Positions 1-7,236 of a stretch of 64,000 nucleotides of DNA are shown here, piece after piece (positions within the stretch are counted from its first letter, which is position 1; each line of letters opens with the position of its first letter). Below the pieces are notes generated by a model, which saw only the letters and a program-made list of their open reading frames with translations, did not search any database and was not told the origin of the DNA. The stretch comes from an uncultured Planctomycetota bacterium. Its GTDB lineage: Bacteria > Planctomycetota > Planctomycetia > Isosphaerales > Isosphaeraceae. The stretch spans positions 32,001 to 96,000 of the forward strand of contig CAWJTV010000006.1 in NCBI GenBank assembly GCA_963845755.1, read 5' to 3'. Position numbers and translations under genes: made by a program.

Positions 1-1955
1 TCCGACCGAAGTATGGGCAAGGATGGCAGCCCGGGCTCGATCCCCGTCCAAGGCAGGCTGACAGCCGCGGTCTTGGAGAGGATGAGTCAACATGATTACA
101 TCTCAACGGAGGTCAGCCCTGAGCCCTCCCGTCACCCGCCATTTCGAGTTCACCCGGTTTCAGGATGAGGCGATCGCGCTGGCATACCAGGCCTTGATCC
201 CGGTCGTTTCTCGCCACCGGGAACGGTCGCGATCGCGATCTCACGACAACGAGCAGGCCACCACAACGATGCAGGGACTCCGATCAAAGGCCAGAGGAGC
301 TTGACCCGTCATGCTCAATTGCGATCTCTGTGTGGGGACCTATGGCCGGGTCTCCGGGGACCAACAGTCCAAGGAGGACACGATCGCCAGCCAGCTTGAG
401 GCGATCAGGCAGCGCGTCGCGAGCGACGGCTTGGTATGCTCCCCCGAGCTGTGCTTCGTGGACGATGGCTACACCGGGGATACCCTGGTCCACCCGGGCC
501 TCGAACGACTTCGGGACCAGGCCGCTGCTGGGACCATCGATCGCCTCTACATTCTCGATCCCGATCGACTTTCACGCAAATATGCCTATCAGGTTTTGAT
601 ACTCGAGGAACTGGCCCGGTGCGGCGTTGAGGTCGTCTTCCTGCACTCCCCTGGGCCACGGACCCGAAGAGAACCTGCTTGTGCAGGTCCAGGGCATGAT
701 CGCCGAATACGAGCGTGCCAAGATCATGGAGCGGTGTCGCCGAGGCAAGCAGTACGCCGCCCGCCACGGCTCGGTCAACGTGCTCAGCGGCGCGCCGTAT
801 GGCTACCGCTACATCGGCAAGCATGAGGGCGGCGGCGCGGCGCGTTATCAGGTCGTGGCCGACAAGGCGCGGATCGTGCGGAAGATCTTCGGGTGGGTCG
901 GCCAGGAACGATGCTCGATCGGTGAGGTTTGCCGACGTCTGCAACGCGACGGCGTCCCCACGCGGACGGGCAAATCGGCCTGGGACCGCTCGGTGATCTG
1001 GTCGTATCTCAGGAACCCTGCCTACAAGGGGACGGCCGGCTTCGGCAAGACGCCGCGCGGCGCCCTCAAGCCGAAGCGGCTGCGAGCGCAACGCGGCCGT
1101 CCTGAGCAGCCCCGGCGTCCTGTCTCTCGGGTCGATACATCCGCGCAAGAACAAATCTTCATCGATGTCCCCGGTTTGGTGAGCGAGGAACTCTTCGGGA
1201 CGGTTCAAGCTCAACTCGAGGAGAACCGGCAACGCCGGCGCGAACGGCTCCGTGGCGACCGCTATCTCCTCCAGGGGTTAGTTGTCTGCAAACGGTGCGG
1301 CTACGGCTGCTACGGCAAGCCGGTGAGCCGGGCCTCGGCCAAGGGGAAGGTCCCCTACGCCTACTACCGCTGCACCGGCTCCGACGCCTATCGTTTCGGT
1401 GGCCAGCGACTGTGTTGGAACAAGCAGGTCCGCACGGATGTCTTGGACGCCGCCGTCTGGGAAGATGTGCGTCATCTCTTGTCCGAGCCCGAACGGGTTC
1501 GAGTGGAGTACGAACGGCGGCGGCACGGGCCGGAGACAGGCCCAGACCGCGAGGTGAAGCATCTCAACAAATTGATTGCGAATCTAAAAAAGATGATCGC
1601 TCGATTGATCGATGCCTACGGCGAGGGATTACTTAACAAGTCGGAGTTCGAGCCGAGGATCTTGGCAGCGCGCGAGCGCCTGGCCAAACTAGAGGATGAG
1701 TGTCGGCAGCAGATTGACGAGGCCAACCAGGAAGCCGAACTGCGGCTGGTGATCGGCCAGTTGGAGGAGTTCGCGAGACGCGTTTCCCAGGAGTTGCACG
1801 AGCCGGACTGGGCCACGCGACGGGCGATCGTTCGGGCTTTGGTGAAGCAGGTCGAGATCGACGAGCAGGAGGTCCGCATCGTGTATCGGATCAGTCCGTC
1901 CCCTTTTGAGGGAGGCCCCCAACAGGGTTCTTTGCAACATTGTTGGGGGCGTGAT
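1..1955 (+). mobile_element. LSR element 1 (left end outside window), inserted antisense into group II intron RT at the PQGSPI motif
   Basis: Minus-strand RT frame reads ...GRGSPQGSPI, then departs from the expected SPLL at ~1947-1955, where the LSR C-terminal coding sequence ends; exact junction unresolved. Confidence 0.75.
92..304 (+). CDS. small accessory ORF upstream of LSR1
   Basis: 70 aa ORF, purine-rich GAGAGGA upstream, stop 6 nt before the recombinase ATG. Confidence 0.5.
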   Translation: MITSQRRSALSPPVTRHFEFTRFQDEAIALAYQALIPVVSRHRERSRSRSHDNEQATTTMQGLRSKARGA

Positions 1956-2204
1956 CGGCGAGCCCTGGGGGCTCCCTCTCCCCTCGTCCTTGTTCCGGGT
2001 GGTCCGATGACGATGGCCCCGCGCGTCGGTCTCTTCCACCGGTGCCTCCAGCCACATCTTGATCAGCTTCAGGACGAAGCGGTCGCTGATGCGCCGGGAC
2101 AGCGATTTCATCAACTCGGCATGGGGTATCGCGTCGAACGAAACCCTACCTTGATACCTCATTCAACAAGCCACTCGCGTCCACGCCCGAGGAGATCGAG
2201 GTAA
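311..2204 (+). CDS. large serine recombinase LSR1 (one frameshift near 655)
   Basis: YGRVS catalytic motif, DDGYTG, DRLSR, GAPYGY, YLLQGLVVCKRCG and YYRC zinc ribbon, coiled coil; ORFs 311..826 and 627..2204 join; recombinase-like sequence ends ~1950 (QHCWGR). Confidence 0.92.
1953..2138 (-). pseudogene. ltrA: group II intron RT, middle fragment (FDAIPH...PQGSPI)
   Basis: FDAIPHAELMKSLSRRISDRFVLKLIKMWLEAPV...GSPQGSPI = RT subdomains 3-4. Confidence 0.92.
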
Positions 2205-2476
2205 CCGACCCGACTCATCCCCTCTTCGGTCGCCACTTCCCCGTCCTCTCGGTCTGCCGGCCACCCCACGGCACCCCGTTCGTGCTCGTGGCCTATCGCG
2301 ACGCGATGCGGCTGCGCATCCCACTGTCTTCGACCAGCCTGGCACCGAGCCCGATCCACCCTCCTCGGACAAGATGGACCGCGGAAGCCATCCAGGAACT
2401 TCTTTCCTTGGTCACGGAGGGTGACACGTCATGCCCCAAGCCCAAGACGTCTGGTCAGTGCTCCCGTCAGCCCTGA
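2135..2476 (+). CDS. start-less accessory ORF of LSR element 2 (EVTDPTHPLFGRHF motif); 116 aa when completed in the circle
   Basis: Open frame from the att core to TGA 2476; in-frame RBS and ATG lie at 4570-4586 at the other end of the element. Confidence 0.7.
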   Translation, partial: RTKPYLDTSFNKPLASTPEEIEVTDPTHPLFGRHFPVLSVCRPPHGTPFVLVAYRDAMRLRIPLSSTSLAPSPIHPPRTRWTAEAIQELLSLVTEGDTSCPKPKTSGQCSRQP

Positions 2477-2664
2477 GACAGCAGGTGATCGACGACATCA
2501 CGGCCATCTACGCGGAGGTTATCCATGAGCATTTCCGAACACATTACCCCGTTCCATCTCGGCCGCAAGGCCCTGATCTATGTCCGCCAGTCCAACCCAC
2601 ATCAGGTCCTCACCCACCAGGAGAGCCGTCGTCTTCAGTACGCCCTCCAGCAGCGGGCTCGTGA
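2431..2664 (+). CDS. small ORF overlapping the LSR2 start
   Basis: GGAGG RBS then MPQAQDVWSVLPSALRQQVIDDITAIYAEVIH; overlaps both neighbours. Confidence 0.45.
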   Translation: MPQAQDVWSVLPSALRQQVIDDITAIYAEVIHEHFRTHYPVPSRPQGPDLCPPVQPTSGPHPPGEPSSSVRPPAAGS

Positions 2665-4571
2665 GTGTGGCTGGGCGGCCCGAGGACATCGAGATCATCG
2701 ACGCCGACCTCGGCCAGACGGCCAGCACCACTCAAGGCCGGCAGGGATTCCAGGAGATCGTCACTCGGGTCACCCTCGACCAGGTCGGCATCATCTTCTC
2801 TTATGATGTCACCCGACTGTCACGCAACTGCACCGAATGGTACCCAGTCCTCGACCTCTGTGGATTCCGCCGTTGCCTCATCGGCGACCGAGACGGGATC
2901 TACGACCCCGCTACAATCAACGGTCGCCTCTTGCTCGGGCTGAAGGGCCAGATCTCCGAGCTGGAGCTTCATACGATCAAGGCTCGCTTGACGGCCGGCC
3001 TGCTCAACAAGGCACAGCGCGGCGAGCTGGCCCTGTCCCTCCCCGTGGGACTAACACGCGACCCACTGGGCCGCGTCGTGAAGCGACCGGATCGCGAAGT
3101 CCAGGACCGCCTCGACCTCGTCTTCGCCACCTTTCTCCGCATCCGCACCCTCAGTGGGGTCGTCCGTGCATTTCGAGATGAGGACTTGTTGCTACCTCGA
3201 CATGACGACTTCGGCGAAGTCGTCTGGCGCCGCCCAACCGTCCCCTCCGTCCGCTCCATCCTGAAGAACCCGGCGTACGCCGGGTCATTCGTCTACGGCC
3301 GCACCCGGACCGTGAGAGACGGCCCGGGCCGTCGGCCGGTCCAGAAGCCGTTGCCGATGTCCGAGTGGCGAATCCATATCCGGGATATCTATCCCCCCTA
3401 CATCGATTGGGCCACTTATGAGAAGATCCAGGGCATGATCCGCGACAACCACAGCGAATACGATCGGAACCAGACCCGGGGTGTCCCCCGGCCGGGGAAG
3501 GCCCTGCTCCACGGGCTCGTCGCCTGCGGCGAGTGCGGCCACAAGCTGACAGTGCAGTACAAGTTCAAGACGCAATATATTTGCAACTCGATGTGGAAAC
3601 AGCACCGCGCTCCGGTCTGCCAGCGGCTCCCTGCGGACCCGATCGATGACCACGTCGTCCGCCGCTTCTTCGAGGCGTTAGCCCCCGCGGAGTTGGACGT
3701 CTACGACCGGGTCCGGGCCTCGCTCTCGGAAGAACAAGAGCAGATCGGGCGGGCGCGACGGCAGCAACTCGATCGGCTCCGCTACCAGGCTCGACTCGCC
3801 GAGCATCAGTACCAAAAGGCCGACCCCGACAACCGCCTCGTGGCCGCCGAGCTGGAGCGCCGATGGGAGGTGGCTCTGCGGGAGTTGAAAGAGGCCGAAG
3901 AGGCATGGGAACGCGAGCAACACGAACAAGCGACACTGGAGCGTCTCGACCCCGAGACACGGCGGGCACTTACCGAAGCCGGGGAACGAATCCCGGAATG
4001 GTGGCGGGCCGACCGTTTCTCGCAGGAACAGAAGAAGGCGCTACTCCGGAGCCTGATCGACAAGGTCGTCGTCCAACGTACGGCGCCGGACATCGTGCGC
4101 TGCCGGGTTGTCTGGAAGGGAGGTGAGACGACGGACGCCGACCTCGCGGTCACAGTCGGTGCCTGGTCACGCCTGTCAGGCGGCCAAGTGATGGAGCAGA
4201 CGATCCTGGAACTGGCCCGGCAAGGAAAGACCGACCAGGAGATCGCCCGGAGATTGACCGAGGAAGGCCACCGTTCGCCACGGCATGCAATCGTCCTGCC
4301 GAGTACGGTCCAGGCCATCCGTCTGCACCATCGCCTGTACCGCGACCGGAGACGAGCACATCCGCGGCGGATCGCGGGGTTCCTGACCGTGCCGCAACTC
4401 GCCTCGAAGTTGAAGCTTCCCCGAAGCTGGATCTACGACCGCATCCACAATTGCAAGATTCAAGTTGATCTCGATGCCACATGGAAGCTCTATCTGTTCC
4501 CCGACAACCCTGAGACTCTCACCCGGTTTCGGCAACTCGTGGCTGGGAAGCTCAACACCTTACGTTTTTAG
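2525..4571 (+). CDS. large serine recombinase LSR2 with C-terminal HTH-like extensions (frameshift near 2675)
   Basis: YVRQS, DADLG, TRLSRN, LLHGLVACGECG, DPDNRLVAAELERRW; GGAGG RBS before ATG 2525. Confidence 0.92.
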
Positions 4572-4591
4572 GAGGGCATCAAGATGCCGTC

Positions 4592-5109
4592 TCGAAGTAA
4601 CCGGAAAGATCGCCGTCGACCACCTCGGTATGCCCGTTCCGGACCAGCCGTTCGACTTGCCTCACGGCGTCGAGGGCGCTCCGTCCTGGGCGATACCCGT
4701 ATTGCTCCGGCTCCAGGTCGGCCTCGAAGATCGGCTCCAAGACCAGCACCGCGGCCATCTGCGCTACGCGGTCCTTGATGCAGGGAATCCCCAGCGGCCT
4801 TTGCTTGCCATCCGGTTTAGGGATGTACACGCGTCGGATCGGCTGGGGTGAGTACGTCCGCTTCTTGAGGTCGTCCGCCAATTCGTCCAGCCATCGGTCC
4901 AGTCCGTATGCTTCGATGTCGTCGAACGTCTGGCCATCGACCCCGGCGGCGCCACCGTTGGCACGGCAGCGGGCGTAGGCTTCCTCCAGGACGTCGCGGC
5001 GATAGACCTTGTCATACAGCGCATAGAACCGATAGTCAGGCGACCCCTTCGCTTTGGTGTGCAACGCCGTCTGGAGTTTCTGAACCGTCGGTGGAGGTGC
5101 TAGGCTCAT
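4592..5109 (-). pseudogene. ltrA: group II intron RT, N-terminal fragment
   Basis: RFYALYDKV, GAAGVDG, RVYIPKPDGKQRPLGIP, DRVAQ, YGYRPGRS, VVDGDLSGYF. Confidence 0.95.
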
Positions 5110-5630
5110 TGCCAATCTCCTGGCTCTCATGCCCCTTGTGACGCTGACCTTGAACTGAGGCCCCTTTGCTCCGCCGGCGTTACCCGGCTTCCTCGCTCAT
5201 ACGGGCCTCTCCGCCACCTCGGGCGGCCCGACCTGGCCCTCGCGGGTTGTCGGTTGAGGGTCACGCGCCCTCACCGCCGAGGCTTCCCGTGTTGCGTCGG
5301 ATCTCCTCTGCAGGCATGCCACCGCCAATACCCCGGTGGAACCCTGGGAGCGTGTCGCGTCGTGAGGGGTAACCCCCTCTGTCTCCCAGGACGGCGGCCT
5401 TCCCCGTATAGCAACCGGGTCGGCTTCCACATCGGGTTGTTTCGGGGCTTGCACGGCGTTCACTGTCGTTGCGGCCTGCCTGCTCGCCGAACCGCCACAG
5501 CGGCCCGTTGTCTCGAAGGCTTCGACGGCTTTGTCACCTCCGCCGCCGCTCCGATCGCTACCGGATGGAGCGACCAGTTTTCCGGGCGGGATTCGCACCC
5601 GCTGAAGATCCGAGCCTTTTCACGGCGCAC

Positions 5631-5645
5631 TGCTATCGGAACCCC
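5631..5645 (-). repeat. outer 15 nt of a 38-bp GGGG-type (Tn3-like) terminal IR; 5' exon of the intron
   Basis: GGGGTTCCGATAGCA matches the IR at 30818-30855 at 14/15. Confidence 0.7.
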
Positions 5646-5770
5646 AGCCCGCGTTCGGTGAGTTGGTCCAACAAGGTATCCAGGAGGAGCTGTCCGGCTT
5701 GGCCATTGACCAGGCGAGCGCGGAACTCGCTGAGCACGGTGTGGTTGAACCCAGGATCGTCCAGTTCTAG

Positions 5771-7236
5771 TACTACTCCGTTAAAATTTCCATTTGTTGG
5801 GTGTAGAGATGAGCACAAGGGTGGCAATACGGACAATCCGGTCGCGCCCGTGGGCTCAGCAACCGCTGCAAGGCGCGACGGATCGCCGGCAAGGTGATCC
5901 GTCGCGCCTTATCCCCTTTTTTTCTCGGCACGGCCGGGTGCTCTTTCTCTCGAAGTTGTTCCAGGACCAGGAAACCGAACGCCAACATCACCAGGCAGAC
6001 ATGGTGATGGAAGCCGCGCCACGAACGGCCCTCGAAATGATCCAGACCCAACTCCTCCTTCATCTGTTGGTAGCCTTGCTCGACCGGCCATCGGCTCTTC
6101 CACAATCGGACCGCCCGCAGCCGCGGGGTGTCGGCCGGCAGGTTGCTGAAGGCGTACTTCAACGTGCCGTCGGCCTGCCGCTCGATCAACAGCCAAATCG
6201 GCTCGGCCCCGGCACAGTCGCCCGTGGCCCAGCCGCCGCCGGGCCAGACCCGCAACCAGGCGAAGTGGCCCGACAGCTTCCCTTTGGTCCCCTCGCGCCA
6301 GGTCACCTTGTGCAGGGTCGTCCGTGCCGCCAGGTCCTTCAGGCTCACGGGCCGGGGGGTACCCTCGGCCAACCGGGGCCGCCGCCGCGGCCGTCCGCCC
6401 GTCCCCTCAGGCCGCGCCGCTGGCCCGGGTGGCTCCCACTGAGGCTCGGCGGTGAAGACGACCATCTCGTCGGTGACACCCACGATGTACGCCAGCCCAC
6501 GAGCGGCCAACCCCTTGCGAAAGTCCTCCGAGACCCCGTAACCGGCGTCGGCCACGGCGAGCCACCCCGGCAGCCCTTCGCCGCGCACCATGTCCAGCAA
6601 TCCCAAGGCGATCTCGCCTTTGGTCTGGGCTCGACGGACGGCCTCCGGAACACCCGCCGCGCCCAGTCGCTTCGGATCCTGGATCCAGGAGTCGGGCAAG
6701 AACAGCCGCATTGCCAACGGATAATGGCCCTTGGGGCTAACGTAGTGGACCGAGGGGGCCACCTGGCAATTGGCCTTCTTGCCCAAGGCCCCGCAATATT
6801 GCCTCTGGACACCGACGGAGTGCTTCCCCTGCTTGGGGAAACCCGTGTCGTCGAAGACGAAGATCCCTTGGGGGCTGGCGAAGGTCTGGGCCAGGTGCTT
6901 TCGATAGTCGCGTGCGAGCTCCTGGTCGTCCCAGGGGCTCTGGTTGACGAACTGCTGGAGGGCCTGCTCCTTGTCCTTGACGTCCAGGTCCGGCGGGAGC
7001 GTGACGCGACCGGAGAGGGGCTCGATGCTCTTGCGTTCGCCGTCCTGGAGCAGCCCTTGGAGAGAGACCCCGCTCCAGGCGGCCTGCGCCTTGTGGGAGA
7101 AGCCATCGCGGAACACGTCCGCATAATCCCGAAGTCGCTCGAGGACTTCGGGCGTCAGTTCGGGGGTGTAAGTCTTGCTCATAATGATCATACGAACAAA
7201 GGCCCCGAGAAGTTCGTAGGATCTAACGGAGTAGTA
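5771..7236 (-). mobile_element. IS701-family element
   Basis: 13-bp perfect IRs TACTACTCCGTTA; CTAG duplicated at 5767-5770 and 7237-7240. Confidence 0.95.
5773..7191 (-). CDS. IS701-family transposase
   Basis: DDTGFPKQGKHSVGVQRQYCGALGKKANCQV, ADAGYG, RWPVEQGYQQMKEELGLDHFEGRSW. Confidence 0.95.
   Translation of the reverse strand: MIIMSKTYTPELTPEVLERLRDYADVFRDGFSHKAQAAWSGVSLQGLLQDGERKSIEPLSGRVTLPPDLDVKDKEQALQQFVNQSPWDDQELARDYRKHLAQTFASPQGIFVFDDTGFPKQGKHSVGVQRQYCGALGKKANCQVAPSVHYVSPKGHYPLAMRLFLPDSWIQDPKRLGAAGVPEAVRRAQTKGEIALGLLDMVRGEGLPGWLAVADAGYGVSEDFRKGLAARGLAYIVGVTDEMVVFTAEPQWEPPGPAARPEGTGGRPRRRPRLAEGTPRPVSLKDLAARTTLHKVTWREGTKGKLSGHFAWLRVWPGGGWATGDCAGAEPIWLLIERQADGTLKYAFSNLPADTPRLRAVRLWKSRWPVEQGYQQMKEELGLDHFEGRSWRGFHHHVCLVMLAFGFLVLEQLREKEHPAVPRKKGDKARRITLPAIRRALQRLLSPRARPDCPYCHPCAHLYTQQMEILTE

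Follow-up and report, generated by a model that had tools for sequence, protein, structure and literature searches.

The inserted element and its divided gene

The window analyzed here, a 64,000-nucleotide (nt) stretch of contig CAWJTV010000006.1 from an uncultured member of the Isosphaeraceae (Planctomycetota), carries a discrete insertion of 2.46 kb at positions 2134-4596 (coordinates without a locus label are window positions). The insertion contains two open reading frames (ORFs), ORF1 and ORF2, together with a gene for a large serine recombinase (LSR), has the sequence TCGAA on both sides, and interrupts the reverse transcriptase (RT) gene of a group II intron. We regard it as a discrete insertion because an uninterrupted, 74% identical copy of the intron in the same genome (L080) represents the empty site and runs across one TCGAA at the position of the 2.46-kb insert. 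The features on which the argument rests are as follows.

2134-2138, forward strand: left TCGAA core, read from the sequence; L080 has a single TCGAA here
2138-2476, forward strand: ORF1 body, an open frame from codon 5 (ACG) to the stop codon at 2474-2476, modelled as a disordered leader, an SH3-like barrel and a helix
2525-4571, forward strand: LSR gene (LSR2), its frame broken by an extra G at 2675
4584-4596, forward strand: ORF1 ATG (4584-4586), codons 2-4 and the first base of codon 5, ending in the right TCGAA; from the sequence and the junction alignment
4592-4596, forward strand: right TCGAA core, read from the sequence
4594-5130, reverse strand: group II intron RT/maturase gene, N-terminal part, the target of the insertion (TIGR04416 2-136 of 353, E 7e-51; RVT_1 1-81 of 205, E 3.1e-10)
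1947-2138, reverse strand: the same RT gene, continuing to the left of the element (RVT_1 79-127 of 205, E 0.044)
5464-5604, reverse strand: host intron ribozyme, domains D1-D4 (RF02003, 100.9 bits, E 3.3e-22)

The target was assigned to a group II intron from its RT/maturase ORF (TIGR04416) and its ribozyme (RF02003), and the element lies antisense within the RT gene. Its crossover dinucleotide is most likely the AA at 2137-2138, as judged by comparing cores, because the two cores of a paralogous copy (L003; TAGAA and TCCAA) have only AA in common.

ORF1 is distributed over both ends of this insertion. The frame that stops at 2474-2476 can be followed leftward, without a stop, across the left TCGAA; the earliest ATG, GTG or TTG in it is the GTG at 2282, which lies downstream of the EEIEVTDPTHPLF motif. 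At the opposite end, the LSR stop codon (TAG, 4569-4571) overlaps a tract of the Shine-Dalgarno type (AGGAGGG, 4570-4576), and an ATG at 4584-4586 lies 10 nt ahead of the end of the right TCGAA. When the two ends are joined at their common TCGAA, the ATG comes into frame and three residues are added to the 113 of the left-end translation (P0001), giving a product of 116 amino acids (aa). The crossover falls between codons 4 and 5 of ORF1, so that the element's own gene is split by its attachment (att) site. An earlier, sequence-only reading of this DNA had described the TCGAA ends, the stop at 2476, the AGGAGGG and the ATG at 4584, and each of these features was found where it had been placed; the lack of a start codon ahead of the motif inside the element and the in-frame 116-aa product across the join, which it had also proposed, were both borne out.

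The same genome contains two copies (L002 and L003) of a relative of this element with 74% DNA identity. L002 interrupts a second group II intron RT gene, at the point of the profile where the RT gene in the window is also split (TIGR04416 5-136 and 134-351), and L003 occupies an unrelated site. Both have an intact LSR gene (681 aa each) and a left-end frame that is open, and in both the right end consists of GGAGGG, 7 nt, ATG, and 10 nt to the crossover. At position 1507 of L003, contigs from two sequencing runs join a third, different left flank to the left end of the paralog element; more insertion sites therefore exist in related populations.

Family-wide survey and a circular relative

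A search with P0001 returned 78 homologs, none of them named beyond "hypothetical protein"; many had been called with N-terminal extensions into flanking DNA, yet they aligned over the leader. A profile scan of species-representative genomes, based on the ORF1 alignment, identified 71 loci, and these were examined together with the window copy and the two paralogs (74 copies in all). The 71 loci are spread over Planctomycetota, Chloroflexota, Gammaproteobacteria and Alphaproteobacteria (including Wolbachia), Cyanobacteria, Acidobacteriota and others, with as many as eight in one Planctomycetota metagenome-assembled genome (MAG) and eight in one Wolbachia chromosome. A profile search of protein clusters gave 742 representatives at E<=1e-3, and the leader segment was present in 110 of the best 150 of these, usually after residues called from the flank.

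The arrangement seen in the window recurred in most of the family. In nearly all copies the left end begins with the crossover base, followed by ACG-A.. and then by CTT-GAT/AAT-ACC-CC, in frame with the motif, and in none of the 74 copies do the 23 codons that lead up to the motif's D codon include an in-element ATG. A right-end arm with an ATG was found in 53 of the 61 copies with enough sequence, at the usual place in 51 and further downstream, behind a passenger gene, in L026 and L048. It is composed of a G-rich tract, ATCAAG (or ACCAAC, ATCACT, ATCAAT or ATCAAC), ATG and 10 nt, after which the flanks diverge. Of the eight copies in which this arm was missing, two are disrupted (L017, L044) and six are members of distant subfamilies whose ends differ (L059, L071-L075). 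Element boundaries were confirmed independently by three repeat-collapsed contigs (2449-2455 bp) that break within a few bases of the crossover.

Conservation of the reading frame across the rebuilt phage-type attachment site (attP) had been set beforehand as the test of the sequence-only reading, and 46 of 50 rebuilt junctions were in frame and stop-free. Two of the remaining junctions (L043, L047) could not be evaluated, as the contig begins at the left end. Leaders are 18, 19, 20, 22, 23 or 30 codons long, all in frame, and their insertions and deletions comprise whole codons only. Because the same layout is found in both paralogs and in most of the 71 related loci, the split of ORF1 is, on this comparison of sequences, far beyond chance.

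Some copies carry additional genes or depart from the common form. In the cargo-bearing elements (L048, L026, L078) the GG-rich tract and ATG stand at the extreme right end and not beside the LSR stop. In L078 the passenger ORF (432-908, 158 aa), situated after the LSR gene and before the right end, had no family match; that of L048, located after the LSR stop, encodes about 95 aa with two CxxC pairs, and L026 is about 0.8 kb longer than usual. The eight Wolbachia copies (L062-L069) are AT-rich and occupy varied non-RT sites in one chromosome; most of their LSR frames are in pieces (569 + 117 aa in L064), and their ends and ORF1 leader are intact. Two members of a distant subfamily (L071 and L073) end on the right in a perfect TTGACA, as though the joint were supplied with half a promoter and not with a start codon. 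A boundary at the TTCTTC common to these two was ruled out by comparing the copies with each other.

The joined form was sought among metagenome contigs with a degenerate motif spanning the predicted joint, and one record matched. In this contig (L078; 3228 bp) the two termini repeat the same 127 nt perfectly and in direct orientation, which identifies it as a circular assembly with a unit of 3101 bp; only by reading from one contig end into the other is a complete LSR gene obtained. An uninterrupted ORF1 homolog (933-1403) spans the joint, with ATCAAG-ATG at 1002-1010. L078 is a relative and not the window copy, and a head-to-tail tandem would assemble identically. A scan for one promoter type, sigma-70-like, found no site in 300-1500 of L078 (the hosts are diverse), and no plus-strand terminator-like site was found between its LSR gene and the joint. 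For the paralog element, Logan contigs (parts in 20 runs, none of them listed as RNA; X1-X4 on L003:1300-4200) contained no go-back joint and yielded only low-depth pieces and loose ends with other flanks, a result that is uninformative either way.

These results suggest the following model. A minimal, transposon-like element moved by its LSR would insert at TCGAA in an intron RT gene, and integration would part the ORF1 body from its Shine-Dalgarno sequence, ATG and codons 2-4, leaving it with no usable start. Joined ends, whether in an excised circle or in head-to-tail copies, would restore the 116-aa ORF immediately after the LSR gene. Transcription that continues from this gene over the joint would then probably allow coupled synthesis of the LSR and its cofactor; in some lineages the LSR stop overlaps ORF1 codons 2-3. 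In this manner the element could "sense" whether it is free or integrated, with the cofactor altering the behavior of the LSR coiled coil. We consider it probable that ORF1 is an LSR cofactor translated only from the circle and split by integration at attP. The recombination-gated switch named in the sequence-only reading is thus supported in its layout, in its conservation across the family and in the joined form found in the circular contig of a relative; translation from the circle only is the part that we infer.

Attachment-site constraint and translation of the leader

The joined ends of the element also form a recombination site, with two arms.

2139-2170, forward strand: attP P' arm; CTTGAT (2150-2155) mirrors the right-arm ATCAAG, and the arm coincides with ORF1 codons 5-16
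4565-4594, forward strand: attP P arm; AGGAGGG (4570-4576, also the Shine-Dalgarno sequence) and ATCAAG (4578-4583)

Together the arms make an inverted repeat, ATCAAG-N11-AA-N11-CTTGAT, with G-rich tracts outside it; the left arm, reverse-complemented, reads GGGGT-ATCAAG and matches the right half-site. The site has the properties of an LSR attachment site, namely imperfect inverted-repeat arms around a crossover of 2 bp, and within any one lineage the two ends have the same dinucleotide (AA, GA, CA or TT). A canonical 5-bp shift of the outer motifs between attP and its chromosomal counterpart (attB) was considered and dropped: the B' GATATC lies about 5 bp nearer the crossover than the P' TATC, but the B arm fits poorly and the target motif is constrained by the RT.

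Much of what makes the layout striking can be attributed to this site, and several observations weigh against a split coding sequence that is completed only in the circle. Conservation of the Shine-Dalgarno sequence and of ATCAAG is not independent evidence of translation, because both belong to the symmetric attP half-site, and conservation of the frame alone says little, because the attP geometry fixes 11 + 2 + 11 = 24 nt between the ATG and CTTGAT. The conserved L-D/N-T-P of the leader partly mirrors a constraint on the DNA, with third positions conserved in codons 10, 11 and 13. The "invariance" of the ATG among the hits is uninformative, because the right-end search pattern demanded an ATG; a relaxed pattern was run on five of the 10 loci without it. 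Eleven of the 74 copies (L002, L003 and nine others) have just a GTG in the 23 codons upstream of the motif, usable as a start in the integrated state, and the rebuilt junctions of L028 and L056 are off by one base. The split is also not universal among DUF5372-like genes: in the distant subfamily of L071 and L073 (each 3922-6777; 2.86 kb, a 704-aa LSR, ORF1 with 41% identity), the gene has an ATG of its own, located some 13 nt in from the left end. The LSR frame of the window copy is broken by one extra G at 2675 (in the run GGG at 2673-2675, after the codon at 2672-2674 for the invariant Trp50). Lastly, a protein resembling a recombination directionality factor (RDF) that is made only after excision would be the reverse of textbook LSR logic.

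Codon-level variation provides evidence of a different kind. DPTHPLF is invariant, conservation is strongest in the part of the protein upstream of the GTG at 2282, and the codons that adjoin the motif upstream vary at third positions; in codons 23-25 (E, V/I, E), which directly precede the occasional GTG, variation is mainly of this kind, and codon 24 also varies at its first position (V/I). In the leader Pro codons (7, 12, 16 and 21) most variation again falls at third positions. The Val codon of EVTDP, which is GTG in L002 and L003 and GTA in the window copy, is GTA, GTC, GTG or GTT across lineages; since its third base varies freely in the family, the idea that the window copy is a decayed version with a lost GTG start was rejected. 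We conclude, from these substitution patterns, that the sequence upstream of the occasional GTG is coding. The GTG at 2282, which the sequence-only reading had named as the start that would undo its proposal, does not behave as one, and a product begun there would be without the predicted interface motif DPTHPLF. As for the ATG, the left-arm triplet symmetric to it is highly variable (entropy 1.3-1.6 bits; Q, C, Y and F codons), and recombinase binding alone does not explain the ATG for that reason.

On these data we can weigh three explanations in which the joint has no part in translation. ORF1 might be an ordinary gene that starts, in the integrated state, at an internal GTG or a near-cognate codon such as the invariant ACG, with the ATG kept as a recombinase-binding arm beside the LSR C-terminus. 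The 11 copies with an in-element GTG ahead of the motif fit this explanation, as do the Pfam DUF5372 profile, which starts at that same Val, and the position of the ATG inside the P arm. Yet the Val codon is GTG in a minority only, with its third base free, and the codons upstream of it, besides evolving as coding sequence, belong to the first strand of the AlphaFold2 model (residues 20-23), which starts upstream of the EVTDP Val. In addition, leader indels always comprise whole codons, the left-arm triplet is unconserved, and no right arm with a triplet other than ATG was seen with the ATG-requiring pattern or with the relaxed pattern on five loci. We therefore rate an internal start as improbable.

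Less probable still is that the stretch from the left end to the motif is untranslated, serving as attP arm and spacer, and that ORF1 of the window is decaying after loss of a GTG start to GTA. The GTA in the window against GTG in the paralogs, the broken LSR frame at 2675 and the disorder modelled for the leader would all agree with such decay. Against it, the start-less layout is also found in dozens of copies with intact LSR genes, no stop occurs in any of the 46 junctions, AT-rich Wolbachia included, the indels are in frame, and the L078 ORF is intact across the joint.

Finally, integrated ORF1 could be translated as a fusion that begins in a host ORF of the left flank. In many copies the frame continues without a stop for 9-30 codons of flank, where gene callers often place the start of the protein. 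In most flanks, however, the frame, followed upstream, reaches a stop before any start codon, insertions are usually antisense to an RT gene, and in several Wolbachia copies a stop codon stands in the flank immediately before the first element codon; we find a fusion of this type extremely unlikely.

Protein, partner, target and possible roles

ORF1 is only a distant relative of DUF5372 (PF17342), a Pfam family of no known function, as judged from profile scores. Its matches begin at the VTDPTHPLF motif and stay below the 25-bit gathering cut-off (P0001 17.1, L003 16.5, L035 17.2 and L064 15.9 bits), which places ORF1 outside the family as defined. In the nearest ESM Atlas clusters PF17342 is annotated on 61%, 31% and 72% of members, and a few of the homolog clusters were pre-annotated with PF17342; NCBIfam assigned none of ORF1, ORF2 and the additional L078 ORF to a family. 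The AlphaFold2 model (mean predicted local distance difference test score, pLDDT, 77.7) consists of a disordered leader (residues 1-19), a four-stranded SH3/KOW-like barrel from about residue 18-20, and a helix (83-95). A Foldseek search of ORF1 against the PDB gave no match at E<=0.001, and the best Z in a wide VIA-align search was 5.4 (KOW, SH3, Tudor and PsaE barrels), which marks a generic small barrel and implies no function.

The recombinase was examined in its intact L003 form, which was recognized as an LSR from its Resolvase (PF00239, E 2.3e-19), Recombinase (PF07508, E 2.5e-15) and Zn_ribbon_recom (PF13408, E 6.1e-08) domains; the YxRxS region with the catalytic serine is invariant in the 19 intact LSRs that were aligned, and the window copy, despite its broken frame, has this sequence too. 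When this LSR was modelled with ORF1, ipSAE values were 0.62, 0.60 and 0.62, against 0.00 for the best of three controls. Of 157 solved complexes, 116 reach the ipSAE mark used, as do 2 of 215 mismatched pairs, counts that are a rough guide for the custom alignments used here (A4, A5). At least 72% of contacts agreed among the three runs, and partner pLDDT was at least 62. The predicted interface comprises LSR residues 333-339 (zinc ribbon), 384-403 and 471-489 (coiled-coil bases) and 502-536 (strands 527-536), and ORF1 residues 27-32 (DPTHPLF), 55-61 and 77-97 (helix). The models thus point to binding of ORF1 at the junction of zinc ribbon and coiled coil. The leader is outside the predicted interface, which fits a role as attP sequence and translation start, not as a functional peptide.

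That junction is where known RDFs are predicted to act. According to PMC12286644, predictions place every verified RDF, irrespective of fold, at the junction of DNA-binding domain 2 (DBD2) and the coiled coil, and the SPbeta RDF is reported to anchor the coiled coil in that region. Like the known RDFs of large serine integrases (SprB of SPbeta, gp47 of Bxb1, gp3 of phiC31 and others), which have no conserved fold, ORF1 is a small protein encoded beside an LSR, with a predicted contact at this junction. The known ones differ in being expressed from the integrated prophage for excision, whereas ORF1 would be untranslatable from most integrated copies.

Two roles can be derived from this comparison. 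If the switch is real, ORF1 may serve the integration phase, either by promoting or stabilizing re-integration or by restraining excision while the element is a non-replicating circle; we hold this tentatively, as a reading that falls slightly short of probable. Alternatively, ORF1 could be a classical, excision-promoting RDF, and with the same anatomy integrated copies would stay locked until a first circle triggers a burst in trans, making the switch bistable. The predicted binding site is that of known RDFs, multi-copy genomes such as those of the Planctomycetota MAG and the Wolbachia chromosome would offer copies to mobilize, and some flanks (L016, L026, L050, L056 and others) give an in-frame ATG that could start the cascade. 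On the other side, an RDF made by the circle would, under the canonical model, block the circle's own integration, and there is no evident trigger for the first excision. We judge the excision-promoting role unlikely, and for the integration-phase role the direction of the effect on the LSR would be the opposite one.

Two further features of the element concern its coding capacity. Removing the extra G at 2675 restores the spacing of all intact LSR homologs, and this G may be a real mutation or a homopolymer sequencing error. The second small gene overlaps its neighbors on both sides.

2431-2664, forward strand: ORF2, with its own ATG; begins within the 3' end of ORF1 and runs into the 5' end of the LSR gene; present in 22 of the 22 family loci checked

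The ORF2 ATG overlaps a near-invariant Cys codon of ORF1, and differences from the paralog include synonymous changes. Its conserved part spans about 31 codons (2431 to about 2527), is amphipathic (M-P-x-x-P-x-x-V-W-x-x-L-P ... E-V-I) and ends at the LSR ATG, and ORF2 then remains free of stops for 35 to more than 52 codons of the LSR gene, which it reads in the -1 frame; this is so even in the AT-rich Wolbachia copies. ORF2 could encode a peptide in its own right, or serve for coupling or as a partner in frameshifting.

The insertion site in the window is typical of the family. Thirty of the 45 copies with at least 90 nt of right flank lie in an RT gene, in antisense orientation and always directly after D-[I/L]-x-x-[C/F/Y]-F, and the genes hit belong to several RT subfamilies. 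This target motif falls at about profile position 135 of TIGR04416 (4597-4615 in the window). The other 15 lie outside RT genes (L003, L023, L027, L032, L040, L043, L051 and the eight Wolbachia copies). By this count of insertion sites, the element family prefers group II intron RT genes as its target. We speculate that an element in intron domain IV may travel along with the retrohoming intron. In the window, a second and different LSR gene (311 to about 1945; ORFs 311-826 and 627-2204), likewise frame-shifted, near 630-830, belongs to an insertion that splits this RT gene at a second, more downstream point, following G-S-P-Q-G-S-P-I-T-P, so that the intron RT was struck twice.

Gene expression that depends on joined ends is itself known from other mobile elements. 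In circles of insertion sequences (IS; IS911/IS3, IS30 and IS110/IS1111), end joining assembles the -35 and -10 halves of a promoter for DDE or DEDD transposases. Circularization turns on element genes there as it would here; the difference is that what meets here, inside the attP of a serine recombinase, is a translation start and the body of an ORF. Closer in machinery are Tn4451 and Tn4453 of Clostridium, moved by the large resolvase TnpX; in work of Lyras and Rood from 2000, joining of the Tn4451 ends reportedly forms a promoter. They share with our element an LSR, a circular intermediate and an expression signal made at the joint, but their joint is a promoter for the recombinase gene, whereas here it completes an accessory coding sequence. 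The element described here is also much smaller (2.46 kb), without resistance cargo, and targets group II intron RT genes.

A gene split by integration has its nearest parallel in the archaeal "suicidal" tyrosine integrases (SSV1, pTN3, pT26-2), which have the att site inside their own gene and are whole only in the circle; the review PMC8371274 describes them as exclusive to archaea. The parallel is an analogy and not family membership: in both cases an element's own gene is split on integration, but in archaea it is the tyrosine integrase, whereas here, in bacteria, the serine recombinase stays whole and an accessory gene is split. A further difference is that only the Shine-Dalgarno sequence and the first four codons are separated here. 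In bacteria, integration reportedly alters the integrase gene in the case of Mx8 intP.

Our literature searches (for DUF5372, for the layout, and for LSRs with a group II intron RT target) found no description of this system, with subscription journals and supplements outside their scope. State-dependent expression being known, what appears to be new is a serine-recombinase attP that splits a separate, RDF-like accessory gene four codons past its start, in bacteria. That the whole picture applies, i.e., a widespread family of minimal LSR transposons homing to an RT motif, with attP as a translational switch and with either reversed directionality control or a bistable burst, is possible but rather doubtful.

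If the switch is real, these elements would have a simple, cis-encoded means of sensing whether they are free or integrated, in which the recombination site gates translation of a cofactor for the recombinase. It would be a third mechanism beside the junction promoters of Tn4451 and the IS circles and the split integrase genes of archaea. ORF1 and its homologs would then make up a family of LSR cofactors with several hundred members, and LSR/RDF pairs serve as genome-engineering tools. For the introns, the use of their RT genes as a dedicated landing pad would make this element family a parasite of a parasite.

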